A DNA stretch of 64,000 nucleotides from contig VEND01000090.1 of the NCBI GenBank assembly GCA_009711765.1, forward strand, positions 1,065 through 65,064. The letters run 5' to 3'. Source of the DNA: Bacillota bacterium. GTDB lineage: Bacteria; Bacillota; Clostridia; Tissierellales; MES13. Position numbers and translations under genes: made by a program. Positions within the stretch are counted from its first letter, which is position 1. Each line of letters begins with the position of its first letter. Below are positions 6,148 through 23,139 of this stretch, one piece after another. The notes beneath the pieces were generated by a model. The model was given only the letters and a program-made list of their open reading frames with translations. It ran no database searches and was not told where the DNA came from.

Positions 6148-6178
6148 GAGGCCTAGAAAGATTTAGGTTGTATTTTTA
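6078..6178 (+). promoter_or_regulatory. c-di-GMP-II (GEMM-II)-like riboswitch, copy A, leader of sipW
   Basis: Ordered blocks GGAAAUAC, AUGGGCACC and GGUGCAACCGACC, as I recall them from the C. acetobutylicum c-di-GMP-II aptamer (..UGGGCAC..GUGCAACCGACC..). Stem ACAUUCCA/UGGAAUGU. Weak hairpin 6150..6169 plus U-run lies before the sipW RBS. Confidence 0.68.
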
Positions 6179-6198
6179 TGTTAAAAAAGGGGGAGCAC

Positions 6199-6747: not shown

Positions 6748-6844
6748 TGATAATATGTAATATAAAAACAAAATAATTAACATAGTTTAAGGTTTACTAG
6801 GGGATAAAAGATTACTTTAGGAGGTGACTTGTAACTAAAGAGAA

Positions 6845-6885
6845 AAAAATGGGCATCTGTGAGAGAGATAACCCATTTTTAAAAA
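6845..6885 (+). terminator. Hairpin plus T-run between sipW and first TasA-like gene (possible attenuator or terminator)
   Basis: AAAAATGGG (6845..6853) pairs with CCCATTTTT (6872..6880), with an inner ATCT/AGAT extension. Confidence 0.45.
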
Positions 6886-6964
6886 AAGAAAATATAATAA
6901 AACTTTCTACTATAGTATATGTAAAAAATAGAAAATTAAAATAGTTCTTAAGGAGGATTTTTAA

Positions 6965-7924: not shown

Positions 7925-7930
7925 ACAATG

Positions 7931-7970
7931 AAACAAACAGGTGAGTAGTTATACTCATCTGTTTGTATAT
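7931..7970 (+). terminator. Hairpin after TasA-like gene (weak terminator)
   Basis: ACAAACAGGTGAGTA / TACTCATCTGTTTGT 15-bp stem (one G-U). No strong T-run follows. Confidence 0.4.
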
Positions 7971-8101
7971 AACTAGACACAGTACCTTAATAATAAACTT
8001 TGTAATAGTTTTATGAAATTAATAAGGCTATAAAAATATTATAATTTTATTAATTTTATAGAAATTTTCAATTTAAATTCTTGTGAGTAAAGGAGATGGA
8101 A

Positions 8102-9229
8102 ATGGTGAAAAAGACTTATTATTTTCTGGTTATAATAGCAATAATAATTGTTATATTTTTATTACCCAAAAATATGTTTACAGAAGATAATATTCCAACA
8201 ATATTAATTGGTAATAATGACATAGAAGTTGAACCTATATTTAAAAGTAAAGGAATAGGTAGTAGTGGGCCTTGGTACCCTGGATATTCAGCTGAGAATA
8301 CACTAAAAATATTAAATAATACTAATTCTAAAGTGAAGGTAAATAATTTAGGAATAGATATATCCTTATTTAGAAATGATATAAAGTTAGAAACTGACAA
8401 TAAAGATGTTATGGATTATTTAGATAATATGTTAATAAAAATAGATTATAGAAATCCTTTAACGAGAACATTTAAGGGAAATATTTTTGAAGGTACATTT
8501 AAAGAATTTTTAAATGGAGTAGATACAAATTTAGTATTAGGAAAGAAAGATAGTATAAATTTAATTTATACTATAAAAATGGATGAAAAAGCAGAGTCTA
8601 ATATAGCAGGAATAGTTGGAAAAACAGATTTCACGGTTAATATACAAGGTGATAATAAAACTAGTACTACTAAAAGAAAAAAAGAAGAAAAATATGATGA
8701 TATAGATAATCACTGGGCCCATGATTGTATAAAAACCTTACTGAAACATGAAATTATAAAGGGGTATCCTGATGGGACTATAAAACCAAATAATTATATT
8801 ACAAGGGCAGAGACGGCTGTTTTAGTAGGAAATGCATTAGATTTAGAAGAAAATAATAAATTCTTTTCAGGATATTTTGATATTTTACCACTTTGGGCAA
8901 GGGGTCATATAATCTCAACTACTGAAGCAGATGTTTTTAAAGGTTATCCAGGAAGATTATTTAAAGCTTATAAAAATATATCAAGAGAAGAAATGACTTC
9001 AGTACTTATAAGGGCATTTATAGAAAAAGAAAAAACAGATATAGATATTAAATTTGTAGATAAGAAAGATATTAGTGATTGGGCAATTGAAGATATAAAA
9101 ATAGCAGTAGACGAAAAAGTGATTGAAGGTTATCCAGATAATACATTCAAGCCTAAAGAAAATATAACAAGGGCAGAGGCATTTACAATCATTTGTAAGT
9201 TATTAGGATATCATGATGAACATAAATAA
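8102..9229 (+). CDS. TasA-like N-terminal domain fused to three SLH (S-layer homology) cell-wall anchoring repeats
   Basis: ATG 8102 is 6 nt after GGAG. N-terminal TM. PIFKSKGIGSSGPWYPGYSAENTLKILNNTNS...MDEKAESNIAGIVGKTDFTVNIQ. SLH repeats: HWAHDCIKTLLKHEIIKGYPDGT.KP...ITRAE, three times. Paralog of 18309..19448. Confidence 0.8.
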   Translation: MVKKTYYFLVIIAIIIVIFLLPKNMFTEDNIPTILIGNNDIEVEPIFKSKGIGSSGPWYPGYSAENTLKILNNTNSKVKVNNLGIDISLFRNDIKLETDNKDVMDYLDNMLIKIDYRNPLTRTFKGNIFEGTFKEFLNGVDTNLVLGKKDSINLIYTIKMDEKAESNIAGIVGKTDFTVNIQGDNKTSTTKRKKEEKYDDIDNHWAHDCIKTLLKHEIIKGYPDGTIKPNNYITRAETAVLVGNALDLEENNKFFSGYFDILPLWARGHIISTTEADVFKGYPGRLFKAYKNISREEMTSVLIRAFIEKEKTDIDIKFVDKKDISDWAIEDIKIAVDEKVIEGYPDNTFKPKENITRAEAFTIICKLLGYHDEHK

Positions 9230-9249
9230 GGATTTAGGAGGTGAATATA

Positions 9250-10476
9250 GTGAAAATGAATAAGAAAAAGATTGTAATAAAATCAGTTACTTTTTTAGTA
9301 TCTGGATTTATAATTAGTACAGCCTTTTTAATGAATTATGACACTTTTTCCTTCTACACTGAAAAGCTAACAGGGGAGGTAGGTGTTTCAGCTGCTAATG
9401 AAAAAGATATTATTAAAGATATAAATTTAGAAACTGATAGGTTTGGTAATACAGAGACCTTAGTATTACAAAAAGGAGAAGGATATGAAGGGGTACCAGT
9501 TATATATTTTTCAATTGATGGAGAGATAGAGGATTATATATTAAATATAAATCCTTTAGTTTTAAATTCATCTCAATCTAAAATATATATTAAAGCGAAA
9601 TCTAATATAACTTTAGAACAGTTTATTAAATTATTGGCAAGCGATAAAGATAAAATAACAGGGACAATAAATATAAGGTCTTTAAATGATTTTGTATATA
9701 ATAAAGACTATACATTAGAATTCAGTAAAAACTATCTTATTGATAAATTTAAATCTCAAATTCCGACAGAAGATAGAAAAGTTATAGAAATTGCAGAAAA
9801 AATATTACAAAGTAATCAGATAAGTTTAAGTGAAGAAAGATTAGTGGATTTTGCTATTTATTCTTTTAAAGAAAATGAAATGAATTCTATCAAGATAGTT
9901 AAAAAACTACTACAACATATTTTTTCTAAAAATAGTACTGAGGTTGATTCGTTAAAGGTTAGTAAAGAACATAGTTTATCCTTACAAAAAGAGCAGATAG
10001 AGTTGATAGATATAATACAGCCTAAATTTGTAGATTATATGAAGGATTTAGAAGGGACAGTTAAAAATTTAAATAAAGTAATAGATGATAATATATTAAA
10101 AATCGAAAAACTTAATGGTGAGAAAGGGATATTAGAAAGAAAAGCAAAAGAATTAGAAGAAACAAAAGAAGTTAAAAATCAAGAAATTGAAAAGCTAAAT
10201 AAAAAAATAGAAGAGATTAATAATGATATTGAAGTACTAAAGGATAATAATAATAAATTAGACAAAAGAATATCATATCTTAAAGAAGATAAAAATGATT
10301 TAGAAAAATCTATTAGAAAATTAAGAAAAGAAAAAGAATCATTGTTAAAGAAAAATGAAAGATTAATAAAGGAAAATAAAGAGCTTAAAAAAGAGATAGA
10401 AGAACTTAAAGATAAGCTTTCAACAGATAACGATGACAACACTACAGTCTCAGGGGATGTTTATGGAAGTAATTAG
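9250..10476 (+). CDS. Membrane-anchored or secreted protein with long C-terminal coiled coil
   Basis: GTG 9250 or ATG 9256 after AGGAGGTG. N-terminal hydrophobic segment is followed by TFSFYTEK. The last ~150 aa are a heptad-like K/E/L/N-rich coiled coil. Confidence 0.6.
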   Translation: MKMNKKKIVIKSVTFLVSGFIISTAFLMNYDTFSFYTEKLTGEVGVSAANEKDIIKDINLETDRFGNTETLVLQKGEGYEGVPVIYFSIDGEIEDYILNINPLVLNSSQSKIYIKAKSNITLEQFIKLLASDKDKITGTINIRSLNDFVYNKDYTLEFSKNYLIDKFKSQIPTEDRKVIEIAEKILQSNQISLSEERLVDFAIYSFKENEMNSIKIVKKLLQHIFSKNSTEVDSLKVSKEHSLSLQKEQIELIDIIQPKFVDYMKDLEGTVKNLNKVIDDNILKIEKLNGEKGILERKAKELEETKEVKNQEIEKLNKKIEEINNDIEVLKDNNNKLDKRISYLKEDKNDLEKSIRKLRKEKESLLKKNERLIKENKELKKEIEELKDKLSTDNDDNTTVSGDVYGSN

Positions 10477-10538
10477 TGAAAATATTAAAAACAAAAGGGA
10501 GTTTTGCATGAATACAATATCAAAGGAAATTTTACAAA

Positions 10539-10608
10539 CTGCAAAGTGTTGAGGATGTTAAACATATATGAAAATATAAAACTTGGATCATTTGTTTTAA
10601 TATATTAA
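10539..10608 (+). pseudogene. Dead 3' fragment of an L,D-transpeptidase gene (duplicate of 5747..5815)
   Basis: Translates LQSVEDVKHI, compared with LPVEDAKYIY in the intact gene. A 2-nt deletion shifts the frame. The equivalent stop context TATATTAA is retained. Confidence 0.75.
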
Positions 10609-10856
10609 TAAATTAGGTAATAGACAGTTAAAACTGTTTGTTACCTTTTTATTTTTTTGTATAAATTAAAAGACAAGCATACATATTTTTTTTATTAGTG
10701 AATATATATTTATAAGGATATAAAAGGAGTAAATTTATATATATAAAACGAAATGTTTTGGAAATAGTTAGAGACAAATGATTATAAAAGGGAGACTAGG
10801 AAATACATTCCATATATGGGCACCTGGAATGTATGGAGTCAATGGTACAACCGATC
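10539..10856 (+). repeat. Copy B of duplicated segment (ldt remnant + intergenic + structured leader)
   Basis: Collinear with 5747..6147. The leader core 10791..10856 matches 6081..6146 at 61 of 66 positions (manual alignment). Confidence 0.85.
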
Positions 10857-10886
10857 TTTATTTTAGTAAAAGGTCTTTTTATTTAT
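10788..10886 (+). promoter_or_regulatory. c-di-GMP-II-like riboswitch, copy B, with intrinsic terminator; leader of two-component system
   Basis: Same blocks as copy A, except GGUACAACCGAUC replaces GGUGCAACCGACC. Terminator stem GATCTTT (10853..10859) / AAAGGTC (10869..10875) plus TTTTTATTTATT. The 5' half of that stem overlaps the aptamer 3' end. Confidence 0.65.
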
Positions 10887-10906
10887 TATACGGGGGGGAG
10901 TAATTT

Positions 10907-12574
10907 TTGAACAGTATTTATAGGATAAAATCTTTTTTAAAAAAACAGTCAGAAGAAGTAAAAATAATGTTTTTTTATAGATACATATCTTTAATAGTTA
11001 CTTCATTTTTTTATTTTGTTGGAGATTCCCATCATAATATTCAAAGAAGACTATTTATAATAATATGTCTTAGTATATCGTCTATTATACTTAGTTACTT
11101 ATATATAATAAATGAAAAAAACCCTTCGAAAATAAAATTACTAGTGTTAATAGAAACTTTAGGTAATTGCTCAATTTTAATACCTTCTGGTGGGCTTAAT
11201 AGTCCCTATGTTTGGTATTCAATAAATACTATATTAATGACTTCAATGGCTTTAAAAGGAAAATATTCTTGGATTAATACATTTATATATTTAAGTGCTT
11301 CTACTTGGATATCCTATCTAGTTACTGATTTTAATAATTATAGCTTTATAGATTTAATAGAGGAAGAATCAAATATAATACTTAGTTTAATTTTGATTAC
11401 TTCAATAATAAGATTACTGTCAAAATACATAAAAAAGATGGAAATAAAAGGTAAGAAGGTTAAAGAAGCCAACAGAAAATTAAAAGAATCAATGACTCAT
11501 ATAATGGAACTTTATCAGGCAGTACATTTATTTACAACACAAAATAGTAAAGATAGTCTGATAGAAATTATAATTAATCATACTAAAAAAATAACAAAGG
11601 CAAATACAGTTATATTTTATAATATATCAAATGAAGAAGATAAATTAATCTGTAAAGGTAGTAAGTTATCTAATGATATAAAGGAAAAATTAAAAATAAA
11701 AATATCAGATTTAAGGAATAATATTCTAGATTCACAAATAACAATAGAATTAGGAATAGAAGGAGAAAATTTCGTTTTAATTGCTTTAAAGTCAAATTAT
11801 AAGACATATGGGATATTAGGGATTAAGTTAAATTATAAAGAAAATATAGAACAATTACAGTTTTTATCTGAGTTAAGCTCTATTGTATTAGAGAAATTCG
11901 AGCTTGAACAGGTTAATGAAAAACTATTGATTACTGAAGAACAAAATAGAATAGCAAATGAAATTCACGATAGTGTCCTGCAGAGACTATTTAGCATATC
12001 ATGTGGAATATTTGCTTTAATTAAAAAAGAAAAAATGACATCTGATGAGATGAATAATGAATTAAATATGATAAGAAGTTCCATAAACAGTACTATGAAG
12101 GAATTAAGATCAACAATATATGGACTGAGCTGGAAAAAAGAAGGTTTAGATTATTTTGTAGATAATATTTCAAATTATATTAATGAAGTTAAAAAATTAA
12201 ATAATGTAGATATAAGTTTCAATATAAAAGGAGATCATGAATTATTATCATCACTACAAAAGAAGTCAGTACATAGAATAATTTGTGAAGGTATAGGAAA
12301 TGCAGTTAATCATGGAAAGGCTAATAATATTGAAGTAAAGCTTAATATTAAAAAATATATAACTTTACTTAAAATAGCTGATAATGGTAAAGGATTTGAT
12401 TTAAATAAGGTAAGAAATAAAAAGGATGTAGGATTAGGTATTAAAAATATTCATTATTTAACTCAGTTACTTAATGGTGAAATTAATTTTAATACTAGAA
12501 ATGAAAAAGGAACTAAAATTAAAATCACCATTCCAAATAATATTAATAATTTTAAAAAGGAGGAAGTAATATGA
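10907..12574 (+). CDS. Sensor histidine kinase, HisKA_3 (NarX/LiaS/DegS-like) family, polytopic N-terminus plus GAF-like middle region
   Basis: TTG start after GGGGGGAG. About 5 TM helices. H-box EEQNRIANEIHDSVLQRLF. HATPase_c blocks NAVNHGKA, DNGKGF and GLGIKNI. Confidence 0.85.
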   Translation: MNSIYRIKSFLKKQSEEVKIMFFYRYISLIVTSFFYFVGDSHHNIQRRLFIIICLSISSIILSYLYIINEKNPSKIKLLVLIETLGNCSILIPSGGLNSPYVWYSINTILMTSMALKGKYSWINTFIYLSASTWISYLVTDFNNYSFIDLIEEESNIILSLILITSIIRLLSKYIKKMEIKGKKVKEANRKLKESMTHIMELYQAVHLFTTQNSKDSLIEIIINHTKKITKANTVIFYNISNEEDKLICKGSKLSNDIKEKLKIKISDLRNNILDSQITIELGIEGENFVLIALKSNYKTYGILGIKLNYKENIEQLQFLSELSSIVLEKFELEQVNEKLLITEEQNRIANEIHDSVLQRLFSISCGIFALIKKEKMTSDEMNNELNMIRSSINSTMKELRSTIYGLSWKKEGLDYFVDNISNYINEVKKLNNVDISFNIKGDHELLSSLQKKSVHRIICEGIGNAVNHGKANNIEVKLNIKKYITLLKIADNGKGFDLNKVRNKKDVGLGIKNIHYLTQLLNGEINFNTRNEKGTKIKITIPNNINNFKKEEVI

Positions 12575-13191
12575 AGATACTTGTAGTTGATGACCATCCA
12601 TTAGTAAGAAAGGGGATATCATCAACCCTCTCCTTTGAAGATGATATTGAAAAAGTACATGAAGCATCTAGTGTAGAAGAAGCAATGAAGGGATTACGTA
12701 GATATAATCCTGAAATTGCTATGATCGATTTAAAACTTGGTAAAGAAGATGGTCTAGACATTGTAAAAAAAGCTAAGAAAGAGAGATTATTTACTAAATA
12801 CATAATATTAACTTCATCTTCTAATAGGGATGACTTTTTAAGGGCACAAAGGGTAGGAGTAGATGGATACGTACTAAAGGAAGCTTTTACAGAGGATGTA
12901 ATATATGCATTTCATGTAGTTAGAAGGGGTAAAAAGTTTTTTGATCAAGAAATTTTACAATATCAGATGGATGAATCTAATGATGATAAATATGATGAAT
13001 TAACACCTAGAGAAAGGGATGTCTTAGTTGAGTTAGGGAAAGGTTTAAGTAACATACAAATAGCAAGAAAATTATATATATCAGAAAATACAGTTAAAAA
13101 ACATGTTAGTAATATATTTTCAAAATTATGTTTAAGTCATAGAACAGAGGCAGCACTTTATATTAATAATTCAGTTAAATTTGGAACTTAA
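12571..13191 (+). CDS. Response regulator, NarL/LuxR family
   Basis: 4-nt overlap with the kinase gene. REC domain (KILVVDDHPLVRKG, MIDLKLG). C-terminal LuxR HTH (LTPRERDVL..L.KGLSNIQIARKLYISENTVKKHVSNIF). Confidence 0.92.
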   Translation: MKILVVDDHPLVRKGISSTLSFEDDIEKVHEASSVEEAMKGLRRYNPEIAMIDLKLGKEDGLDIVKKAKKERLFTKYIILTSSSNRDDFLRAQRVGVDGYVLKEAFTEDVIYAFHVVRRGKKFFDQEILQYQMDESNDDKYDELTPRERDVLVELGKGLSNIQIARKLYISENTVKKHVSNIFSKLCLSHRTEAALYINNSVKFGT

Positions 13192-13223: not shown

Positions 13224-13721
13224 ATGGTAAGAAAAAGAAAGAAAAAAATATTTAAAGGTAAGAAATTAATGTTAATTAGCTCTATTGCAATGTTAAATTT
13301 TGTAGGAGTAAGTTATGCATCTTGGAATGATAACATAGAAATATTTACTTCTCTTTCCACTGGGGAAATGAATATATCCTTTATAGATAGTCATAATATT
13401 CAAAAGGTAAGGGGAAAAGGAACTTTAGAAGTAAAACATATCGGTGAAAATACAATAGAAATTAGTGGAGAGGTAGATAAAGATTATAAAGCATTTTTAC
13501 ATTACGGTGTAGTAAATAAAGGTAGTATCCCTGTTAAATTTAGAGGACATCCATCCCATGATAAAGCTGGATTGAAACTACGATTAAATAATCAATCTAA
13601 AATGATAGGACCTAAGGAAGTCATTTATAAAAATGGGAATCCTAAATTACATATTGAAGCAAGGGAAGTAGGTACTTGTAATTTTACAATAAAATTACCC
13701 TTTAAACAATGGAATCGTTAG
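13224..13721 (+). CDS. Minimal TasA-superfamily secreted protein (165 aa)
   Basis: Signal plus N-terminal strand FVGVSYASWNDNIEIFTSLSTGEMNISF, compared with TasA WAAFNDIKSKDATFASGTLDLS. Also VVNKGSIPVKF. C-terminal NFTIKLPFKQWN, compared with TasA FSFEATQWN. Confidence 0.7.
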   Translation: MVRKRKKKIFKGKKLMLISSIAMLNFVGVSYASWNDNIEIFTSLSTGEMNISFIDSHNIQKVRGKGTLEVKHIGENTIEISGEVDKDYKAFLHYGVVNKGSIPVKFRGHPSHDKAGLKLRLNNQSKMIGPKEVIYKNGNPKLHIEAREVGTCNFTIKLPFKQWNR

Positions 13722-13768: not shown

Positions 13769-14005
13769 GTGAAAAAAGGATCGGTTATTTTATTAAGTAC
13801 AATAGGTGGATTTATCTTAATGTCAGGGGGATATGGCCTTTGGAGAGATAGTTTAACTATTAAAGGTAATATAACAGTTATTGAAGAGGTATATCCTGAA
13901 GAGACAATGGATGCTTTATCCTTTGAACAACCTAATTTAGACTTAGAAAATGTTACAGATATAGAGGATGAAAAAACGGTTACTGAAGATGTGTACAGTG
14001 AATAA
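13769..14005 (+). CDS. 78-aa secreted mini-protein: signal peptide, TasA-type N-terminal strand and acidic tail only
   Basis: GTG start after GGAGG. LSTIGGFILMSGGYGLWRDSLTIKGNITV resembles GAGYAYWSETLTINNTVKTG of the downstream subunits. The rest is D/E-rich, and there is no globular domain. Confidence 0.55.
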   Translation: MKKGSVILLSTIGGFILMSGGYGLWRDSLTIKGNITVIEEVYPEETMDALSFEQPNLDLENVTDIEDEKTVTEDVYSE

Positions 14006-14036: not shown

Positions 14037-15248
14037 ATGATAAATAATTATTTACCAACAAAAGCATCTAAAAAAAGATGCTTTTTACTTATCGGCTTAT
14101 TACTTAGTTTATATTTGGTTGAAAACTCACCCATAACTAAATATCTTGATAATCAAATTTTAAATTACATTTTAAAACCTATGTTATGGGGAAGTATGGC
14201 TTTAATAGTATGGATATTTCCTAAAATCAGATCTAAGGGTTTATTAAAATTAAAGGGACTTATAAATATATGGGCTTTTAATTTTTCTATAATTTTTATT
14301 GTTATATCAGTAATAGCAGGAGTTATTGATGGCTTAGGGAAAAGTCCTTACGATCACTCTTTAAGGGGTATGTTACTTAATATTTTACTAGTTGGTTCTA
14401 TGTTAATTGGTAGGGAGTTTGTAAGAAGTTATATAGTAAATAGTTTAACTAAGGAAGAAAATTATGTTGTATTTGTATTAGTTGCTTTATTTATGACTTT
14501 TATTAGTATATCTTTAAATAGGTATTTTAAAATAGATGGATATGTAAGTGGAGTTAAATTTACAGCCCAATACTTTGCTCCTGAATTTTCAAAAAATCTT
14601 TTTGCATCCTATTTAGTATTTTTAGGAGGGCCAATAGCTTCAATAATTTATTTAGGAGTATTAGAAGCATTTCATTGGCTTTCACCTATACTTCCGGATT
14701 TAAAATGGATTATAACTGCACTAATAGGTGTTTTATGTCCTATTTTTTCACTCCTTGCAATGCAAAGTATATATCTAAATCAATCTAAGGAAATAAAAGT
14801 GAGTGATAAAGAGGAAGATAGTCCTATAAGTTGGATGATAACTAGTATAGTATCCATAGGAATCATATGGTTTGCAGTGGGTGTATTTCCAGTTTATCCT
14901 TCTGTTATAGCAACAGGTAGTATGGAGCCTATGATAAAACCTGGGGATGTAATATTAGTTAAAAAAATAGTAGATATAGAAGGTGTTAAAAAGTTAGATA
15001 TAGACGATGTGATTCAGTTTAAACGAGGTAATATACTAATATCCCATCGAATAAAAGAAATAGTAGAGAAAGAAAAAGAGGGAATTCAATATAAAACAAA
15101 GGGAGATAATAACTCAGTTTCAGACAGTAAGTTAGTAAAGCCAGAACAGATAAAGGGAAAGATTGTAAAGGTTGTACCAAAAATAGGATGGCCTACATTA
15201 CTTATTAAAAGTAAAGACGATATTCCATTAGATCAAATAGAATTTTAA
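14037..15248 (+). CDS. Polytopic membrane domain (~280 aa) fused to SipW-type signal peptidase I
   Basis: The N-terminus has about 7-8 predicted TM helices of unassigned family. C-terminal peptidase blocks: ATGSMEPMIKPGDVILV, ISHRIKEIV, YKTKGDNNSVSD. Confidence 0.8.
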   Translation: MINNYLPTKASKKRCFLLIGLLLSLYLVENSPITKYLDNQILNYILKPMLWGSMALIVWIFPKIRSKGLLKLKGLINIWAFNFSIIFIVISVIAGVIDGLGKSPYDHSLRGMLLNILLVGSMLIGREFVRSYIVNSLTKEENYVVFVLVALFMTFISISLNRYFKIDGYVSGVKFTAQYFAPEFSKNLFASYLVFLGGPIASIIYLGVLEAFHWLSPILPDLKWIITALIGVLCPIFSLLAMQSIYLNQSKEIKVSDKEEDSPISWMITSIVSIGIIWFAVGVFPVYPSVIATGSMEPMIKPGDVILVKKIVDIEGVKKLDIDDVIQFKRGNILISHRIKEIVEKEKEGIQYKTKGDNNSVSDSKLVKPEQIKGKIVKVVPKIGWPTLLIKSKDDIPLDQIEF

Positions 15249-15280
15249 AAAAATCACAGGATACAGTCCTGTGATTTTTC
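15248..15280 (+). terminator. Rho-independent terminator after the SipW fusion gene
   Basis: AAATCACAGGA-tacag-TCCTGTGATTT stem followed by a T-run. Confidence 0.85.
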
Positions 15281-15453
15281 TATGTAGATAAATATTAGTT
15301 CAGCGACGTAATACTAAAGTAGTATATCTATAACTAATAAGTATTAGTAAATATACATCTAAAATAGGATAAATAACTATCCTTACGTACGATGTTAAAT
15401 ATATGAATAAATACTATAATTAGTATTGTAAGAAATATGAAAGCTAGCTAATA

Positions 15454-15475
15454 TTACTTAATGGCCATTAAGTAA
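15454..15475. promoter_or_regulatory. Perfect 22-bp palindrome upstream of first BsaA/TasA-like subunit gene (candidate operator)
   Basis: TTACTTAATGG|CCATTAAGTAA, ending 46 nt before ATG 15522. Confidence 0.4.
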
Positions 15476-15521: not shown

Positions 15522-16124
15522 ATGAAGAGAACTAAATTTTTAGCATTAGCATTAGTAGCAGCAATTATGGTAATGGGTGCTGGATATGCATATTGGTCAG
15601 AAACTATAACAATTAGCAATACAGTTAAAACTGGGGAATTAGATTTTACATTTAATGACGCAGCAATAGTAAGTGTTGATGAGTATATGGATTATGATGC
15701 TACTTCTACTTGTGGTGTAAATAGTGATGATAATAATCAAGTTGATATTGTATTAGAAGATATGTACCCAGGAGCAGAAGCCACAGTAAAATTTGATTTA
15801 GAAAACACAGGTACTATGAAAGCTAAACTAAAGAATTTTGCTATACCAACAGCACAAGAGAATGAATATGTTCATGTAACTTCAGTTAAATTAGGTGATG
15901 CCGAATTACTTACTGAAACTATAAATATTGCTGATTTAGACTCAACGTTAGAAGCTCAGAATATTACTATTGAACCAGATGCTGAGCAATATTTTGAGAT
16001 TACTTTCGAAATAGATCCAAATGCTGATGAAGATCAAGTAGCTGAAAATCTTGGAGATAATGATGATGCTATTGAGTTTACTTTAACTGCAGATGGACTT
16101 CAATATAACGATGATGAAAACTAA
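15522..16124 (+). CDS. BsaA/TasA-family SipW-dependent matrix or fibre subunit (acidic, 200 aa)
   Basis: Signal plus strand VMGAGYAYWSETITISNTVKTGELDF. MYPGAEATVKFDLENTGT. C-terminal AIEFTLTADGLQ. Strong RBS GGGAGAG. Confidence 0.8.
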   Translation: MKRTKFLALALVAAIMVMGAGYAYWSETITISNTVKTGELDFTFNDAAIVSVDEYMDYDATSTCGVNSDDNNQVDIVLEDMYPGAEATVKFDLENTGTMKAKLKNFAIPTAQENEYVHVTSVKLGDAELLTETINIADLDSTLEAQNITIEPDAEQYFEITFEIDPNADEDQVAENLGDNDDAIEFTLTADGLQYNDDEN

Positions 16125-16135
16125 GATTATTAAAA

Positions 16136-16163
16136 TTTATGCAGGGTAAGAACCCTGCATAAA
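16136..16163 (+). terminator. Hairpin after subunit gene 1
   Basis: ATGCAGGG-taagaa-CCCTGCAT. The trailing T-run is weak. Confidence 0.5.
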
Positions 16164-16259
16164 TTATCTTTAAAAATTCATTTAAAATAAAGTAATTATT
16201 GTTATGATAGTTTGAGAAAAATTATATTAGAAACACATTAAAAAATGAGGGGTGTTTTC

Positions 16260-16922
16260 ATGAAAAAATCAAGAGTGCTGGCCCTAACTTTAGTAGTTGC
16301 GGTTGTGTTAATGGGAGCTGGATATGCATATTGGAGTGAAACTTTAACAATTAATAATACAGTAAAAACAGGTGAATTGGATTTACAATTTGACTATCCT
16401 ACTTATGATGGTGACTATGATGATAAATATCCATATTCAGATGATTATATGAAAGTTGATTCTTATTTTGAAGATGAGAAACATAAATTAGTTTTTGAGT
16501 TAGAAGATGTTTATCCAGGTGGCGGCGGTTGGTTAAATTTTAAAATTAAAAATACGGGAACTGTACCAGCTAAGCTTACAAGTATAACTCCTTCAATCCT
16601 TTCAGATGAAGCTAATATGAAAGATGAATTTAATTATGCACTTCATTCAATAAAATTATATTATCCTATAAAGATTGGACAATGGGAATGGACATATGTA
16701 ATACCTGTAGATTTTCCTATGTATGCTACTACATTTAATGATTTTGTAGGAAAATTACAATCAAAACTTAGTCAATATACTTTAGAACCAGGTGCATACT
16801 TTGTAATAAATGCTGAAAGTGGAGGTTATGATATACAATTACCAAGTACAGTAACAAGTGATGACTTTGAAGATGAAACGTTCAAATTTGATTTATTATT
16901 AAACTTTGATCAAGCGCATTAA
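16260..16922 (+). CDS. BsaA/TasA-family SipW-dependent matrix or fibre subunit (paralog, ~220 aa)
   Basis: ATG 16260 after GAGGGGTG. LMGAGYAYWSETLTINNTVKTGELDLQF. VYPGGGGWLNFKIKNTGT. C-terminal TFKFDLLLNFDQA. Confidence 0.8.
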   Translation: MKKSRVLALTLVVAVVLMGAGYAYWSETLTINNTVKTGELDLQFDYPTYDGDYDDKYPYSDDYMKVDSYFEDEKHKLVFELEDVYPGGGGWLNFKIKNTGTVPAKLTSITPSILSDEANMKDEFNYALHSIKLYYPIKIGQWEWTYVIPVDFPMYATTFNDFVGKLQSKLSQYTLEPGAYFVINAESGGYDIQLPSTVTSDDFEDETFKFDLLLNFDQAH

Positions 16923-16962
16923 TACTAAAAAAGCTAGGAATATAGTCCTAGCTTTTTTAGTA
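16923..16962 (+). terminator. Rho-independent terminator after subunit gene 2
   Basis: TACTAAAAAAGCTAGGA / TCCTAGCTTTTTTAGTA 17-bp stem including a T-run. Confidence 0.85.
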
Positions 16963-17039
16963 TTAATGTACTATTCTAAAAAGGTAATTCATAAATTATG
17001 TAGAATATGTAATTAATACAAATTGGTGGGAGTGATGTC

Positions 17040-18146
17040 ATGAAGTTTAATATAAATAAGAACATCAGAAAAATTATAATGATAGCTAGTATAATTCTGA
17101 TTATGATTACCTCTTTTTTCTTATATCGTGAGTATAAAATTAAAGAATATGAAGAAAAGAAAATAAGTTTATATAGTTATAATAATAAATCTATTATTAA
17201 TTACGAAGTTTTTCTTAAACCTAATGTTTTGTATGAGACCGAAAGTATAGGAGAAAGGCACATATATATTACAGAGTTTGTTGATTATCTTAATACGATA
17301 TTTACTTATGATTTTAAAGGGGAAAAAGAAGCAGAAATTAAAGGAAATTATGAAATTGTAGCTGTAGTTGAAGGATATACAGGCGAAGGTGAAACATATA
17401 AAAGTATATGGAAGAAGGCTTTTACTTTAGTATCTAAAAAGAAATTCAATGTTAAAGATAAAAAGGTTTCTATAAATCAAGAAGTTCCAATAAAATTTCA
17501 TGAATATAATAATTTCGCTAAAAAGGTTATTGAAGACTCAAAAATTTATTCTAGTGTTAAATTAAATGTGTTTATGGATGTTAATCTAAAAGCTAATACT
17601 GACAAAGGACTGATAGAAGAAAAAATAACACCTGCTATAGAGATACCTCTTAATACAAATTATTTTGAAATTGCTGGAGAGCTATCTCAAGATAAAGAAG
17701 GAAGTATAGAAAAAACAGTTAAGGTTGAATTGCCTGTGGATAGAAAAAAAGTTATTTCATATTGTGTACTTATAGGTATATTTTTAATAGTATTATTATT
17801 TGTATTGATATTTACTAAAGGGATTTTAGATATAAATCCTTTAGAAAAGAAATTGAAAAAAATATTTAAAAGCCATGGAGATAGATTAGTAGCATTAAAG
17901 GATGAAGTTATATATGATTATGAAAAAATAAATACTGTAAATTCTATAGATGATTTAGTAAGAATTTCTGATGAGATAGGGAAACCTATAATGTATAAGT
18001 ATAGTGAAAATCTTTTAGATATAACTAAATTTTATGTTTATGATGAGACTACTATATATGTTTTAAATTTAGATAAACTTATAGGAAAAAATGAAGTAGA
18101 GGAAACTGTAAAAAATATGATTTCAAATGATAGTGCTGATAGTTAG
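17040..18146 (+). CDS. Bitopic membrane protein of unknown function (possibly DUF5305-like)
   Basis: TM1 at about aa 12-28, a ~210-aa beta-rich outside domain, TM2 at about aa 240-258, and a ~110-aa cytoplasmic tail. The family assignment is from memory only. Confidence 0.6.
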   Translation: MKFNINKNIRKIIMIASIILIMITSFFLYREYKIKEYEEKKISLYSYNNKSIINYEVFLKPNVLYETESIGERHIYITEFVDYLNTIFTYDFKGEKEAEIKGNYEIVAVVEGYTGEGETYKSIWKKAFTLVSKKKFNVKDKKVSINQEVPIKFHEYNNFAKKVIEDSKIYSSVKLNVFMDVNLKANTDKGLIEEKITPAIEIPLNTNYFEIAGELSQDKEGSIEKTVKVELPVDRKKVISYCVLIGIFLIVLLFVLIFTKGILDINPLEKKLKKIFKSHGDRLVALKDEVIYDYEKINTVNSIDDLVRISDEIGKPIMYKYSENLLDITKFYVYDETTIYVLNLDKLIGKNEVEETVKNMISNDSADS

Positions 18147-18308
18147 TTGATAAAAACTACTCAAAAGTAGTATAAGAAATTAATCTAAAGTATTATATAA
18201 AAATATAAAATATTAAATAAGATAATAGTAAGTATTTAAAAAAATATACATATGCAAAGGATAAGTAATTTAAGTTTTAAGAGTATTGAAATCATAGAGG
18301 TGAATTTT

Positions 18309-19448
18309 ATGTGTAAATCGTTTAAGTATTTTAAATACATAACTATATCCCTAGTAATGCTTTGTCTTATTTTTACTAGTTCTTTATCCTATGCATATGA
18401 CACACCAGTTACTGAAGTAACCATAGGTAGTAATAATGAAAACATAGATCCTATTTTTAAAAGTGATGGTTTAAATGGACAAGGAACATGGTATCCTGGA
18501 TATTCATCAAGTGGAATTTTAAGGCTTAAAAATGGACGTAATAAAAGTATTAAGATAAAAAATATAGGTATGGATGCTTCATTAGAGAAAAATGGGACCA
18601 CCCTTGATTTTGAAAATGAATCTGCAATGGCTTATATGAGTAAAATGAAAATAAAAGTTCAGTATAAAAGTCTATTTAGTAAAATAATTAAGGGTACTAT
18701 TTATGATGGTAGTTTTTATGAGTTTATAAATGGTGTAAATACTTCTATAAAAATAGGTAAAGATGATACGGTTGATTTAGTATATACAATTAAAATGGAT
18801 GAAAGTGCAGGAAATAATACTGAAGGTATTAAAGGGAATATAGATTTTACTGTAAGTCTTAAAGAAAATACTTCTAATACTAATACTAATACCGATACAG
18901 GAGGTACTACTAGAAAGAAAAAGCCTGTTAAACATTGGGCCCATGATTGTATAGAAACCCTTTTAGAAAAGGGTATAATTAAAGGGTATCCCGATGGAAC
19001 GATAAGACCAGATAATCATATAACAAGGGCAGAAGCATCAGCTTTAGTATGTAGGGCACTTAAATTAGAAGTAAAAAAACAGTGGCTTCCTAAGTATTTA
19101 GATATTAGTGGGCATTGGGCTCAAGGCTATATAACATCTACAACGAATGAAAAGGTATTTAAAGGATATCCTGGATTTGTATTTAGACCAGAGAGAAATA
19201 TTATAAGAGAAGAGATGTCTGCAGTTTTATTTAGGGCATTTGATAGAGAACTTCAAAAAGATTTAGAGTTAGAGTTTACAGATAATGATAAAATATCTGA
19301 TTGGGCTAAGAGTCATGTAAAGATAGGTGTGGAACATAAAATTATAGTAGGTTATCCAGATAATACATTTAAACCAAGAAATGATATAACAAGAGCAGAA
19401 GCCTTTACTATGATATGTAAGTTATTAGGATATCACAGTGAACATTAA
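18309..19448 (+). CDS. TasA-like N-terminal domain fused to three SLH repeats (paralog of 8102..9229)
   Basis: ATG 18309 after AGAGGTG. Signal peptide ends SLSYA-YD. PIFKSDGLNGQGTWYPGYSSSG...MDESAGNNTEGIKGNIDFTVSLK. SLH repeats: HWAHDCIETLLEKGIIKGYPDGT...ITRAEA. Confidence 0.8.
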   Translation: MCKSFKYFKYITISLVMLCLIFTSSLSYAYDTPVTEVTIGSNNENIDPIFKSDGLNGQGTWYPGYSSSGILRLKNGRNKSIKIKNIGMDASLEKNGTTLDFENESAMAYMSKMKIKVQYKSLFSKIIKGTIYDGSFYEFINGVNTSIKIGKDDTVDLVYTIKMDESAGNNTEGIKGNIDFTVSLKENTSNTNTNTDTGGTTRKKKPVKHWAHDCIETLLEKGIIKGYPDGTIRPDNHITRAEASALVCRALKLEVKKQWLPKYLDISGHWAQGYITSTTNEKVFKGYPGFVFRPERNIIREEMSAVLFRAFDRELQKDLELEFTDNDKISDWAKSHVKIGVEHKIIVGYPDNTFKPRNDITRAEAFTMICKLLGYHSEH

Positions 19449-19482
19449 ATTAGCGGCCAAGTACTTGGCCGCTAATTTAATG
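19443..19482. terminator. Bidirectional terminator between SLH gene and NhaC-family gene
   Basis: Perfect long palindrome CATTAAATTAGCGGCCAAGTACTTGGCCGCTAATTTAATG. Confidence 0.85.
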
Positions 19483-19483
19483 T

Positions 19484-21037
19484 TTAGTTTTCTACACTTA
19501 ATTTTTCTTCTTTACTAACTTTTTTTCCAAATACTTTTAAGAAAGTAAATAGTATTATAATACCTATTACTAGGGATATCCATGGATTAAATCCAAAACC
19601 TACAGGGATAAATCCTACTAAAATAGATACTAAACCAACAGTTAAAGCATAAGGCATTTGAGTTTTAACATGGGCTATATGATCACAGGCACTGGCCATA
19701 GAAGACATTATAGTTGTATCAGATATAGGAGAACAGTGATCTCCTAAAACTGCACCGGTTAAAACTGAACCTATTGTTGGTACTAATATATCTATACCAC
19801 CTAGTTTAAATGCAAGGGGAATAGCAAGTGGCATTACTATGGAATTAGCTCCCCATGATGAACCTGTTGAAAATGCAACTATAGCTGGTAGTAAAAACAT
19901 TATTAAAGGAAGTAAAAAGGTAGGTAAAGAACCCTTTGTTATACTTACTATAAATTCAGCTGTACCTAAATCACCATTCACATTTCCTAAAGACCAAGCA
20001 AGTACTAATATTAATGATGCAGTAGTCATTGATTTAATACCTGAAGTCCAAGATTCCATTATCTCTTTTATACTTAAAATTCTTTGGGATAGACTTAATA
20101 ACGCAGCTATTATAGTTCCACCAAAGGATGACCATAATAAAACTATACTAGCATCAGCTTCGCCAAAGGCATCCTTTATAGAAGCACCTTCAAGGCCTCC
20201 ACCATTTATATAAAGACCTATTATTGTAATAATTATTACAGAAGCAATCGGAATAATAGCATTATACCAACGTTCCTTATCAGTGTTTGATTCCATTTCA
20301 TCTAATTCACTTGAAACAGTAGGTTTAGCATCATCATCCATTAATTTGCCTGTTAAATAAGTTCTTTTTTCTGCTTTATACATAGGTCCAAAATCTTTCT
20401 TTGTAAGTATTATCATTAATACAAAGACTAAAGCAAGTAAACTATAAAATCTATAGGGAATAGATTGCATAAATATAGAGTAGGCATTTAAATCAAGATC
20501 TATACCTGCTAAACCATCCTTAATAAGTCCTGTTTCAAAGCCAACCCATGTTGATATAAAAGCTATACTTGAAACAGGGGCAGCTGTTGAATCTATTATA
20601 TAAGAAAGTTTCTCTCTAGATATTTTCATTTTATCTGTTATGCTCCTCATAGTATTACCAACTATTAAAGAGTTTGCATAGTCATCGAAAAATATTAATA
20701 TACCCATAAGATATGTTGTAATTAGTGTTGATTTAGAACTTTTTGCTTTTTTAACGATTATATTAGCAATACCATTAGTTCCTCCATTTTTACTTAGTAT
20801 ACCTATTAATCCTCCTATTGATAAACAGAAAATAAGTATAGATACATTCCATGAATCTGTTAGTGCACCTACTATATAATCATTTAATGTAGCTGTAAAA
20901 CCTATAAGGGGGTCACCATTAACTATGGTTGCTCCTACTAATACTGCGACAAATATTGATAATAAAACTTCTTGAGTAATAAATGATAAAATAATTGCTA
21001 TCATTGGTGGTATGATTGATAACCATCCATAATCCAT
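19484..21037 (-). CDS. NhaC-family transporter, candidate lysine transporter (LysW-type) based on L-box leader
   Basis: 517-aa polytopic protein with NhaC-like repeats. It lies directly downstream of a lysine riboswitch on the same strand. Confidence 0.75.
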   Translation of the reverse strand: MDYGWLSIIPPMIAIILSFITQEVLLSIFVAVLVGATIVNGDPLIGFTATLNDYIVGALTDSWNVSILIFCLSIGGLIGILSKNGGTNGIANIIVKKAKSSKSTLITTYLMGILIFFDDYANSLIVGNTMRSITDKMKISREKLSYIIDSTAAPVSSIAFISTWVGFETGLIKDGLAGIDLDLNAYSIFMQSIPYRFYSLLALVFVLMIILTKKDFGPMYKAEKRTYLTGKLMDDDAKPTVSSELDEMESNTDKERWYNAIIPIASVIIITIIGLYINGGGLEGASIKDAFGEADASIVLLWSSFGGTIIAALLSLSQRILSIKEIMESWTSGIKSMTTASLILVLAWSLGNVNGDLGTAEFIVSITKGSLPTFLLPLIMFLLPAIVAFSTGSSWGANSIVMPLAIPLAFKLGGIDILVPTIGSVLTGAVLGDHCSPISDTTIMSSMASACDHIAHVKTQMPYALTVGLVSILVGFIPVGFGFNPWISLVIGIIILFTFLKVFGKKVSKEEKLSVEN

Positions 21038-21068: not shown

Positions 21069-21330
21069 TAAAAAAACACCTAACAGGTTGTCAGGTGTAA
21101 ATAACTTTGACTAACCTATCCCTTCTTTTATAACCCAATGTGAGATAGCACTCCAATAAGATAACGGGTATTTATCCTATTGACAGTCCTACATTTATTA
21201 AATGCAGACCCAGCTTTAGATTTTGGTATCTAAGGCTTCGGCAATGGCTCCTTTTGTTATACTTCATAGGCTTCCAACCTTCATATAACTACTTTTAGAC
21301 ATTGCACCTCTACCCCATCTTGAAGAGATG
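21069..21330 (-). promoter_or_regulatory. Lysine riboswitch (L-box) with intrinsic terminator
   Basis: Minus-strand RNA contains GGUAGAGGUGCAAU, GGAGCCAUUGCCGAAGCC, GCUGGGUCUGCAUUUAAUAAAUGUAGGACUGUCA and UUGGAGUGCUAUCUC. These match the B. subtilis lysC leader blocks. Terminator is ACACCTGACAACCTGTTAGGTGT plus T7 (21069..21099). Confidence 0.88.
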
Positions 21331-21567: not shown

Positions 21568-23139
21568 ATGTCAGTTGAGTTAATTAAAGACTTACTTAAG
21601 ATAGACCAAACCATAGGCAAAGATCAAATCCAAGCCTTGGTGGAAGGGGAAATAACGGTACCAGATTCTAAGCCTAAGATAAATAAAGTATTAAATATAG
21701 ATGGGTCTGCAGAAGTTTTAGAAAAAAGAATAGTTAAGGATAAAGTCGTAGTAAGTGGTATTGTTAATTTCAAAGTATTATATAGTGCAAAGGATGATAA
21801 TCAGCCAATACATAGTCTAGATTCAAAAGCAGATTTCAGTGAAGAGATAGAAATAAAAGGTGTTACAGACCAAATGATGGGTGATGTTAAGGCAGATATA
21901 GAACATATCGATTATTCAATGACAGATGAAGATAAAATAGGTGTTAAAACTGTATTATCTATTGAGGGTAAAGTTCAAGCTGAAGACAATATAGATATAG
22001 TAAAAGAAATTCAAGGAACTAAGGGTTTACAGGTTAAAAAGGAAAAAATAAAGTATAATAATACAGTTGGTTTTAATAATACAACAACTATAGTAAATGA
22101 AGCCTTTGAATTAGAAGAAGAAATGCCAGATATAATAGATATATTAAGGGTAGATTCTAAGGCTTTTGAAAGGGAAACTAAAATAGTTGATGATAAAGCC
22201 ATTGTAGCCGGGACAGTTGAGGTTTCTATAATGTATTTTGGAGATGATAGTGAAAATAGAATTAATCAATTTACTAGAGAAATACCCTTTACCCATTTTG
22301 TAGAAATACCAGGAGCTTTAAAGGATATGGATTATATAACAGAGATTAAAGCTACTGATCCGGTATATAATACAAGGGATGATATTAATGGTAATGTAAG
22401 GGTTATGGACTTTGAAGCAATAGTTAAAATAAATGCTAAAGTATTTGAACAAAGAGAAAAGGAAGTTACAGTTGATACTTATTCAACTAATAAAAAATTT
22501 GATATTACTAAAAAAGAAATTGATGTAACTGAAAATATAGGAACTTTAACAAAAAAAGAAGATGTTAAAGGAGTTATTGATGTTTCTGAGGCTAATGAAA
22601 TAATACAAAATATATATAATGTTAATGCTAAACCAATACTAACAGATTATAGAATAATAGAAGGAAAAGTTGTTATAGAAGGTTTAGTAAATACAAATAT
22701 GTTATATTTAGAAGAAGAAAGTGAAGAAATAAAAGATATATCAAAGGAAATTCCTTTTAAAGTATATGCAGATATAGATAATGTTAAAGAGGGAATGGAA
22801 AGTGAAGTTAATGTATCATTAGATAATCTTAAATTTAATAAGAAAAATTCAAGGGAAGTAGAAGTTGATATATCAGTTAAAAATAATATATCAGTTAATA
22901 GAACTAAAAAAATTAATATAATAACAGAAGCATTAGAACTTGAAGAAGATATAGATAAAAGAAATAGACCAAGTATCACAATATATATAGCCCAGGAAAA
23001 TGATACTTTATGGGATATAGCTAAAAGATTTAATACAACAGTAGAAGAGTTAATAAGTACAAATGAAATAATGACTCCTAATAACATTATGCCTGGTGAA
23101 AAAATAATTATTGAAAAGCATTTAGATATGGATTTTTAA
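21568..23139 (+). CDS. DUF3794-repeat protein with C-terminal LysM domain; SipL/SpoVID-like spore coat morphogenetic candidate
   Basis: 523 aa. C-terminal LysM is ITIYIAQENDTLWDIAKRFNTTVEELISTNEI...PGEKIII. It sits immediately upstream of ispE, as I recall for C. difficile sipL. Confidence 0.6.
   Translation: MSVELIKDLLKIDQTIGKDQIQALVEGEITVPDSKPKINKVLNIDGSAEVLEKRIVKDKVVVSGIVNFKVLYSAKDDNQPIHSLDSKADFSEEIEIKGVTDQMMGDVKADIEHIDYSMTDEDKIGVKTVLSIEGKVQAEDNIDIVKEIQGTKGLQVKKEKIKYNNTVGFNNTTTIVNEAFELEEEMPDIIDILRVDSKAFERETKIVDDKAIVAGTVEVSIMYFGDDSENRINQFTREIPFTHFVEIPGALKDMDYITEIKATDPVYNTRDDINGNVRVMDFEAIVKINAKVFEQREKEVTVDTYSTNKKFDITKKEIDVTENIGTLTKKEDVKGVIDVSEANEIIQNIYNVNAKPILTDYRIIEGKVVIEGLVNTNMLYLEEESEEIKDISKEIPFKVYADIDNVKEGMESEVNVSLDNLKFNKKNSREVEVDISVKNNISVNRTKKINIITEALELEEDIDKRNRPSITIYIAQENDTLWDIAKRFNTTVEELISTNEIMTPNNIMPGEKIIIEKHLDMDF

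Follow-up and report, generated by a model that had tools for sequence, protein, structure and literature searches.

Described fibre systems and the locus under study

AbpX, the "archaeal bundling protein X" of Pyrodictium abyssi, is recognised by its mature N-terminus, aromatic at position 2 and acidic at position 4, and by a pI of about 4 and about 15% Asp/Glu (bioRxiv 10.64898/2026.01.04.697558). Among the traits used to define its clade is polymerisation by donor-strand complementation that needs no chaperone and is triggered by Ca2+. Fibres of this type have been described only recently and for this one archaeal protein, and the bacterial loci come so far from bioinformatics only. According to the same preprint, bacterial abpX loci encode an enlarged signal peptidase I (SPase I) with ten transmembrane (TM) segments, DUF5305 proteins, AbpX-like minor subunits, tip proteins, SLH or LPXTG anchors and histidine kinases, and AlphaFold 3 (AF3) models show minor components and anchors co-assembling with AbpX by strand exchange. 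The present analysis concerns two tandem genes, here termed X1 (15522..16124, 200 aa) and X2 (16260..16922, 220 aa), both on the + strand of a 64,000-nucleotide stretch of contig VEND01000090.1 (assembly GCA_009711765.1), referred to as the window. Its source is a metagenome-assembled genome (MAG) annotated "Firmicutes bacterium" (locus tag FH753_09950), from an uncultured, mesophile-type member of the Bacillota (Clostridia class). The two proteins are very probably paralogous subunits of an AbpX-type extracellular fibre of the TasA superfamily, encoded in a bacterial abpX locus for which a mechanism and a layered mode of expression are proposed below. The fibre probably helps its Clostridia-class host to build biofilm.

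The window locus comprises nine genes in the order histidine kinase, response regulator, s1, s2, signal peptidase I, X1, X2, DUF5305 and SLH anchor. Table S3 of the preprint lists nine proteins for Natronincola peptidivorans, its SLH-anchored bacterial example (bioRxiv 10.64898/2026.01.04.697558). The locus retrieved from that genome agrees with the window locus in all nine genes and in their arrangement, so the window contains an orthologue of a locus type known from the preprint. The resemblance to AbpX and the bacterial abpX loci covers the best sequence match, the donor-strand signature, low pI, high Asp/Glu content and the YPGAE and ENxGT core motifs, as well as the multi-TM SPase I, the DUF5305 protein, the SLH anchor, the kinase and the extra AbpX-like genes. 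Unlike the minimal locus of P. abyssi, a hyperthermophilic archaeon, the window locus belongs to a bacterial mesophile-type MAG and has nine genes, and part of the AbpX Ca2+ ligands are not positionally conserved in its proteins.

Two bacterial systems are more distant. With the TasA/TapA/SipW system of Bacillus subtilis (8aur, 5of1), the window locus shares a SipW-type signal, a predicted beta-sandwich subunit, probable N-terminal donor-strand exchange and a locus-encoded signal peptidase. It differs in that its peptidase is a 403-aa polytopic protein instead of the 190-aa SipW, and in that TapA is lacking, with a DUF5305 protein and an SLH anchor present instead. The sipW-bsaABCRSD locus of Clostridium perfringens likewise groups a two-component system with a dedicated signal peptidase and with a subunit gene that has a paralogue behind it, and it has a terminator directly after the major subunit gene. 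Unlike that locus, the window locus has its regulators first and its subunits after the peptidase terminator, and it has neither a BsaC with a von Willebrand factor A domain nor a link to type IV pili. Heteropolymers of TasA-family paralogues from one operon have already been proposed (PMC11580942).

Two paralogous proteins of the AbpX clade, probable fibre subunits

Both open reading frames that the first-pass annotation had reported exist. The X2 start is placed at 16260 because a Shine-Dalgarno (SD) sequence, GAGGGGTG, lies 5-12 nt upstream, homologues begin with MKK and a database protein is identical to the 220-aa form; a longer X2 from the in-frame ATG at 16245 was rejected on the same evidence. 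X1 is preceded at 8-9 nt by GGAGAG, invariant in four loci, and the strong ribosome-binding sites claimed for the two genes are thus borne out. Residues 18-41 of the two proteins, MGAGYAYWSETITISNTVKTGELD in X1 and MGAGYAYWSETLTINNTVKTGELD in X2, are identical at 22 of 24 positions, in agreement with the reported near-identity of signal and N-terminal strand. By BLASTP, the two agree at 46% identity over ~105 aa from the N-terminus (E 2e-29), with no detectable similarity past that point. Profile-profile comparison shows the two families to be homologous end to end (hhalign, prob 100%, E 3.4e-50). Because they align over their full length, the later difference noted at first pass amounts to divergence plus an insertion within the same domain.

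In composition, mature X1 is strongly acidic (pI 4.05, 23.7% D+E), above all in its C-terminal half (29%), as had been noted. Mature X2 has a pI of 4.21, 17.3% D+E and 17.3% aromatic residues; its aromatic-rich segment QWEWTYVIPVDFPMYATTF, also picked out at first pass, is an insertion relative to X1, located in a loop at residues 141-159. Both proteins share the composition hallmark of AbpX.

Sequence and profile searches place X1 and X2 in the AbpX clade of the TasA superfamily. The best match of either among PDB sequences is AbpX of P. abyssi (9sj2, 9rhp), with single-sequence E-values of 1.1e-11 and 3.1e-7, respectively. With family profiles built from 22-23 homologues, AbpX is reached at E 1.2e-18 (X1) and 3e-15 (X2), and TasA (8aur, 5of1) at 0.024 and 0.023. 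The Pfam model PF12389 (Peptidase_M73, TasA/camelysin) scores 35.1 bits for X1 and 26.6 bits for X2, above its gathering threshold of 22.5, in a match limited to residues 9-55 and 9-47, that is, to the signal and donor strand (profile positions ~11-58 of 196). The SipW-type signal model TIGR04088 of NCBIfam is also passed (20.7 and 22.8 bits, cut-off 19). The BsaA model TIGR04090 gives 24.8 and 22.0 bits against a cut-off of 60, over residues 5-45 only. The earlier label "BsaA/TasA-like" therefore stands for the TasA superfamily, the SipW-type signal and, probably, the beta-sandwich, and fails for the BsaA family, whose place the AbpX clade takes. Agreement with AbpX extends over sequence, donor-strand signature, low pI with high D+E, and locus kit.

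The wider family is large, with 1463 cluster representatives at E <= 1e-3 and 285 at <= 1e-10 in an exhaustive search; close relatives of X1 are few (12 cluster representatives at E <= 1e-30). Two older database names, "ribosomally synthesized peptide" (the JGI name of one homologue) and "camelysin metalloprotease" (the Pfam name), were rejected for these 200-aa proteins, which are predicted beta-sandwiches. CalY has probably been misidentified as a peptidase (PMC11580942).

Donor strand and proposed assembly

Predicted cleavage after G-Y-A (GYA/YW) yields the mature N-termini Y1-W2-S3-E4-T5-I/L6-T7-I8 in X1 and X2, which align residue by residue with W2-S-E4-T-L6-S-L8 of AbpX. The hallmark aromatic position 2 and acidic position 4 correspond to W25 and E27 in both proteins. 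The AlphaFold 2 (AF2) model of X1, with a predicted local distance difference test (pLDDT) score of 81, has the TasA fibre 8aur as its top Foldseek match (E 3.9e-4, prob 1.0). AbpX is absent among the Foldseek matches of this model, so the AbpX link rests on the sequence and profile searches. In both models, residues ~22-40 following the signal helix have no regular structure and low confidence, which fits an unpaired donor strand. On these models, it is plausible that X1 and X2 are beta-sandwich proteins with a free N-terminal donor strand and serve as fibre subunits. Of the AbpX Ca2+ ligands, which lie where donor strand and groove meet, E4 and D18 are conserved in both (E27, D41); X2 has E71-D72-E73 in the loop where X1 has D69/D70, and an equivalent of AbpX E142 could not be mapped.

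Assembly may then proceed as follows. The locus's own enlarged, polytopic signal peptidase I would cleave the exported X1 and X2 pre-proteins behind GYA, probably with the aid of the DUF5305 protein. Cleavage would free the N-terminal donor strand Y-W-S-E-T-(I/L)-T-I-x-N-T-V, which would close the open beta-sandwich of its neighbour by donor-strand complementation. Ca2+ bound to acidic residues probably stabilises this complementation in AbpX. The principle would be that of TasA, AbpX and BsaA, whose secreted beta-sandwich subunits are linked through exchange of the N-terminal strand once a dedicated signal peptidase has cut them. The expected product is a highly acidic fibre, tied to the cell wall by the SLH protein.

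Conservation of the pair and the possible role of X2

The order kinase-regulator-s1-s2-peptidase-X1-X2-DUF5305-anchor is also that of two metagenome contigs, of Alkaliphilus metalliredigens QYMF and of N. peptidivorans. The X1 and X2 sequences of these syntenic loci split into separate clades by neighbour joining; the duplication therefore predates the divergence of the loci, and the two genes stem from an old duplication. A survey of 19 related loci, in which subunit genes were classed with hidden Markov models (HMMs) of the X1 and X2 families, found the X1-then-X2 tandem in 12, including loci with the peptidase and DUF5305 genes on the other strand. One further locus has three tandem subunit genes and another has two less clear ones. 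A lone subunit gene is found in five, which include the loci of Tissierella sp. Yu-01 and Anaeromonas frigoriresistens, and three of these five keep the X1 type by profile score. X2 is thus frequent yet dispensable. Some single-gene loci encode a longer protein, of 306 aa with a C-terminal extension of ~100 aa (8001-8921 in locus L006, Tissierella sp. Yu-01) or of 252 aa (8001-8759 in locus L010), and the added domain may replace the function of X2.

Within each of seven genomes, the X1 and X2 donor strands are more alike than between genomes. Strand positions 3-5 read SET/SET, QED/QED, QED/QED, TQD/SQD, TQD/TQD, TET/SET and AEE/QED for X1/X2, giving 17 identities out of 21 against 9.3 expected (permutation P 0.005; P 0.01 for the whole 18-residue strand), in a test that is uncorrected for phylogeny and covers about 2-3 independent changes. 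Recent gene conversion of the N-termini was rejected: 29-41% of the codons for identical residues differ synonymously, and the longest exact run is 10-20 nt. The co-variation fits selection by a shared partner and is taken as a lead, no proof. That partner could be a common acceptor groove, as in co-polymerisation, or else the peptidase or a Ca2+ site that both use.

The bulk subunit is probably X1, because it is more acidic, lies closer to AbpX and is the type kept in most single-gene loci. X2 is most likely a conserved second subunit, minor or adaptor in role, built in by the same strand exchange; the preprint names such paralogues "AbpX-like minor filament components" (bioRxiv 10.64898/2026.01.04.697558). 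The idea of two co-existing major subunits, put forward at first pass, is not established.

X2 could instead be an assembly factor, cap or nucleator, as TapA is for TasA. By means of its donor strand or its groove, it would then start, stop or anchor polymers of X1, perhaps by linking them to the SLH anchor as an adaptor. Its gene can be missing, as the five single-gene loci show, and it is probably expressed below X1, being 3' of the hairpin described below. X2 also adds its family-specific insertion and a conserved GYDIxxP motif, missing from X1, to a retained donor strand and core motifs (YPG, NxGT and the C-terminal F..Q), and the strand exchange of minor components and anchors in the AF3 models of the preprint (bioRxiv 10.64898/2026.01.04.697558) would suit such a role. 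Against this stand the other tip or adaptor candidates of the locus (s1, s2 and the N-domain of the SLH protein), an X2 sequence that gives no sign of a blocked or missing groove, and an AF2 monomer that resembles a complete subunit with a free N-terminal strand. A dedicated assembly role is accordingly possible, if doubtful, and the picture of X2 as a minor, strand-exchanging subunit is kept here.

An operator-like palindrome upstream of X1

The spacer upstream of X1, 270-360 nt long across loci, carries a 13-nt palindrome, TACWAAAGTAGTA. In the window, this operator-like element (TACTAAAGTAGTA) is exact at 15312-15324, the only exact copy in the 64 kb. Allowing one mismatch at most, 14 of 17 loci have it upstream of X1 and eight have it upstream of the SLH-anchor gene, and it has been kept although some of those loci have proteins at about 30-40% identity. 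It was not found upstream of X2. Closer to the gene, the string TTATAATT with a -10-like TATAAT (15415..15420, + strand), ~100 nt 5' of the X1 start, is invariant in a four-locus alignment. A conserved TATAAT with no good -35 suggests an activator-dependent X1 promoter. The NarL-type regulator of the locus is the candidate binder of the palindrome and would probably act at its copies before X1 and before the anchor gene.

Other palindromes occur in the same regions. Before the SLH anchor gene of relatives, the element appears inverted (L001 10833, L003 11109, L004 10951, L006 10462 and 10488). The window itself has a variant with a 5-nt centre, TACTCAAAAGTAGTA, at 18156-18172, just 3' of the DUF5305 stop. 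A perfect palindrome with 11-bp arms, TTACTTAATGG/CCATTAAGTAA, lies at 15449-15475 in the X1 5' region, inside an insertion of ~40 nt that is missing from three aligned relatives; it could be a 5' stem-loop in the X1 leader.

Hairpins and transcription of the pair

Folding energies compared with shuffled sequences confirm the hairpins that the first-pass annotation had placed after each subunit gene and after the preceding peptidase gene. The X1 stem-loop (16134-16165) folds at -20.1 kcal/mol (z -6.5), the one after X2 (16916-16969), a strong terminator of bidirectional type, at -33.2 kcal/mol (z -10.9), and the intrinsic terminator after the peptidase gene (15249-15279), a 14-bp stem followed by UUUUUCU, at -17.0 kcal/mol (z -4.9). 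All three lie on the + strand. The peptidase and X2 hairpins have a GC core stem and then 5-6 U; the core of the latter, GCUAGGA...UCCUAGC, sits between A6 and U6 runs. The X1 hairpin ends in AUCUUUAA and has no U tract, here or in the two nearest relatives. A consensus terminator scan called neither the X1 nor the X2 hairpin. Between 9000 and 20000, a search by E-value against Rfam assigned no known RNA family to the 5' region of X1 or to the spacer that separates X1 from X2, and weak miRNA and sRNA matches at 16913-16994 were rejected as the X2 terminator hairpin itself.

Across loci, the hairpins are conserved to different degrees. The one after the peptidase gene is found throughout the five closest syntenic loci, of which the window locus is one, with a GC core and a U-rich tail in L001, L003, L004 and L005. 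A hairpin follows X2 in 11 of 12 tandem loci and the lone subunit gene in five of five. Between X1 and X2 it occurs in seven of 12 and is absent in Alkaliphilus (49-nt spacer), N. peptidivorans, L008, L009 and L019 (25-nt spacer). Promoter matches before X2 are at chance level; a sigma-70 consensus scan gave 57 sites against 75.6 expected and is uninformative in such AT-rich DNA, and no X2 promoter is claimed from it.

The first-pass annotation read the two genes as independent transcription units. X1 does have its own upstream region, and the hairpins are real and recurrent; the weak point is X2, whose promoter matches are at chance and which is separated from X1 by a hairpin with no U tract, lacking in five of 12 loci. 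From the sequence pattern, the X1-X2 hairpin is probably a leaky terminator or a 3' mRNA-stabilising element. Since the palindrome precedes X1 and this hairpin occurs in only part of the loci and without a U tract here, read-through from X1 probably accounts for at least part of X2 expression. The best reading is basically one unit with the X1 promoter, closed by the X2 terminator, in which the internal stem-loop would probably pass only some transcripts into X2, or else stabilise the X1 message, leaving X1 above X2. A precedent exists in C. perfringens, where Northern blots showed the terminator after bsaA to be leaky, with a short, abundant sipW-bsaA transcript of 1.4 kb and a long read-through transcript of 7.3 kb (PMC7395162). 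Of the earlier claim of highly expressed structural subunits, the part that fits is X1, which is probably strongly expressed; two equal independent units find no support.

That claim can be pressed further, into two independently transcribed major subunits that form alternative homopolymeric fibres under different conditions, each from its own promoter and to its own terminator. Besides the stable hairpin after each gene, it could draw on a TG-extended, -10-like TATGAT before X2 (16203-16208), at a roughly conserved position in L001 and L003, and on the strong difference in surface between acidic X1 and aromatic-rich X2. In C. perfringens, moreover, the paralogue BsaB stays out of long BsaA oligomers (PMC11580942). 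The palindrome speaks against this model, standing before X1 and the anchor gene and not before X2, as do the promoter-like matches, which are at or below chance. Tandem loci with no intervening hairpin and spacers down to 25-49 nt imply co-transcription, and near-identical, co-varying donor strands are more easily explained by a shared partner. Alternative fibres are therefore unlikely, and a single X1-led unit is preferred.

A c-di-GMP-II riboswitch at the head of the locus

A cyclic di-GMP (c-di-GMP)-II riboswitch aptamer (RF01786) lies at 10782-10865 on the + strand, at the head of the locus, and scores 68.8 bits against a gathering threshold of 53.5 over model positions 1-84 of 84. The same aptamer precedes the kinase gene in four of six loci checked, namely the window, L003, N. 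peptidivorans (L005) and Tissierella (L006); a search 5' of the kinase genes of L001 and L004 came out empty, even at E <= 1. The sequence and its minimum-free-energy fold give a terminator-like hairpin, GAUCUUU...AAAGGUC followed by UUUUUAUUU (10853-10888, + strand), the likely expression platform, whose 5' arm lies inside the 3' end of the aptamer. Because of this overlap, the ligand should prevent termination, and the element would be an ON switch with c-di-GMP. It would gate the kinase-regulator-s1-s2-peptidase operon. The preprint mentions c-di-GMP enzymes near abpX loci; it is silent on riboswitches, terminators, operators and the upstream palindrome (bioRxiv 10.64898/2026.01.04.697558). 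A gene for a GGDEF/HD-domain protein adjoins the L001 locus. In L003, the closest metagenomic relative, tandem c-di-GMP-I riboswitches (1198-1517; 81 and 87.5 bits) precede a transglutaminase-like gene just 5' of the c-di-GMP-II riboswitch and the kinase gene.

All these elements can be combined into one scheme, in which X1 and X2 are obligate partners in a Ca2+-gated heteropolymeric fibre and their strands co-evolve to fit each other's groove. The hairpin would set the X1:X2 ratio, and a feed-forward chain would lead from the c-di-GMP riboswitch through kinase and regulator to the operator before the fibre and SLH anchor genes. In this full form, the scheme is speculative and rather improbable.

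Weighing the assignment

Several points weigh against an AbpX-type fibre built from X1 and X2. The X2 model has no significant Foldseek match in the PDB, only weak jelly-roll-like ones (best E 5.6e-3, phaseolin), which were set aside as evidence. The AbpX Ca2+ ligands D46, D48 and E52 align to V66, S68 and N72 of X1, with D69/D70 adjacent, so these ligands are not positionally kept. The single-gene loci show that X2 is not essential, X2 may have a promoter of its own, and the co-variation test covers few independent changes. The distance from the palindrome to the conserved TATAAT downstream of it, ~95 nt, is long for a site of simple activation. Finally, we infer polymerisation, Ca2+ dependence and the expression level in the host from sequence.

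A BsaA-type fibre, with the exchanged strand locked by an intermolecular Asn-Lys isopeptide bond through an N-E-K triad as proposed for C. perfringens BsaA (PMC11580942), is very improbable: the nearly invariant, inward-facing donor-strand N33 between the hydrophobic I31 and V35 does recall BsaA N35 between V33 and F37, and a weak N-terminal TIGR04090 match exists, but that match is short and far below its cut-off, the Lys and Glu of the triad have no invariant or near-invariant candidate in the alignment of either family, and AbpX has Ala (A10) at the position of N33, which is therefore not required for AbpX-type strand exchange.

Within the AbpX assignment, the window offers a clean and complete bacterial example with the full accessory kit, and it marks the second subunit gene as an old and widely kept feature of bacterial abpX loci. 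Beyond the preprint, it contributes a regulatory anatomy: the c-di-GMP-II riboswitch, the 13-nt palindrome before major subunit and anchor genes in widely diverged loci, and a terminator pattern that is graded. Together with the donor-strand co-variation, the riboswitch, the conserved operator-like palindrome and the terminator gradient make up a modest gain, which leaves the picture of such systems unchanged. These features provide handles for testing how c-di-GMP is coupled to matrix fibres in Gram-positive anaerobes, and for testing TasA-superfamily heteropolymers.

Other genes of the locus

The remaining genes all lie on the + strand. The sensor histidine kinase (10907..12574; HisKA_3 and HATPase_c, NarX/LiaS-like, by Pfam and NCBIfam) is syntenic in 14 related loci. 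It is followed by the NarL/LuxR-type response regulator (12571..13191; REC and GerE HTH, by the same databases), whose identity is 56-66% where the window gene order is kept and 46% in the most divergent locus. The s1 gene (13224..13721) encodes a basic protein (pI 10) with a SipW-type signal and a donor-like strand SWNDNIEI. It occurs in all syntenic loci and matches the X1 family profile over 104 columns (hhalign, prob 94%, E 1.5e-7), which makes s1 a candidate AbpX/TasA-like minor or tip subunit. The s2 gene (13769..14005), taken from the open reading frame list, encodes a short acidic protein of 78 aa with a signal and a donor-like strand, GGYGLWRDSLTIKG. Because its counterparts in five other loci have 167-276 aa, the window s2 looks truncated or reduced, and it may be a decaying gene or a reduced variant.

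The signal peptidase I gene (14037..15248) encodes a long polytopic protein of 403 aa. Peptidase_S26 scores 24.3 bits (cut-off 22.9) and TIGR02228 64 bits (cut-off 51.85, residues 268-387). The S26/SipW-like catalytic domain is preceded by a multi-TM extension of ~265 aa, and a crude Kyte-Doolittle scan finds at least six hydrophobic segments in the protein, to be compared with the ten TM segments of the preprint's SPase I form. Downstream of the subunit genes, the DUF5305 membrane protein (17040..18146; PF17231, 145 bits) has two hydrophobic segments, read as two TM; such proteins have been proposed as an accessory subunit of SPase I (bioRxiv 10.64898/2026.01.04.697558). The candidate cell-wall anchor (18252..19448), syntenic in most related loci, combines an N-terminal beta-rich domain bearing a WYPGYS motif with three SLH repeats (128 bits over the three). 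Its N-domain has no detectable similarity to the X1 profile (hhalign, prob 6%), and TasA-likeness could not be demonstrated for it. The locus is closed by a terminator at 19437..19487 (+ strand; -32.5 kcal/mol, z -9.0), which it has in common with a convergent antiporter gene and which the terminator scan did call.

Neighbouring elements

Immediately 5' of the abpX-type locus, 6072-10646 holds a second module of SipW type. It begins with its own c-di-GMP-II riboswitch (6072-6155, 61.9 bits), followed by a short classical SipW of 189 aa (6178-6747) and a 319-aa protein (6965-7924) whose signal, GAGMGTLAYFQSQ, is SipW-like and which matches nothing in Pfam, NCBIfam or the PDB. Next comes an SLH protein (8096-9229) that matches the anchor at 18252-19448 along its entire length with 46% identity (E 6e-127). 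It is followed by a coiled-coil protein of 411 aa (9241-10476), which has an N-terminal hydrophobic segment, and by a terminator (10615-10646). The window may thus carry two fibre systems with paralogous anchors and the same second messenger. If X1 and X2 were obligate partners in the scheme outlined above, this module would mean two differently built fibres under one signal.

Past the other end of the locus, a lysine riboswitch (21138-21320, - strand; 116 bits) lies 5' of the NhaC-like gene of the Na+/H+ antiporter family (19484-21037, - strand) that converges on it. Such pairing of a lysine riboswitch with an NhaC-like antiporter gene is already known and has no connection with the fibre locus. 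Sporulation-related genes, encoding a SipL (SPOCS) and LysM protein and a SpoIID and amidase_3 protein (21568-23139 and 3007-4428), flank the region, and the host is therefore taken to be a spore-forming member of the Bacillota.

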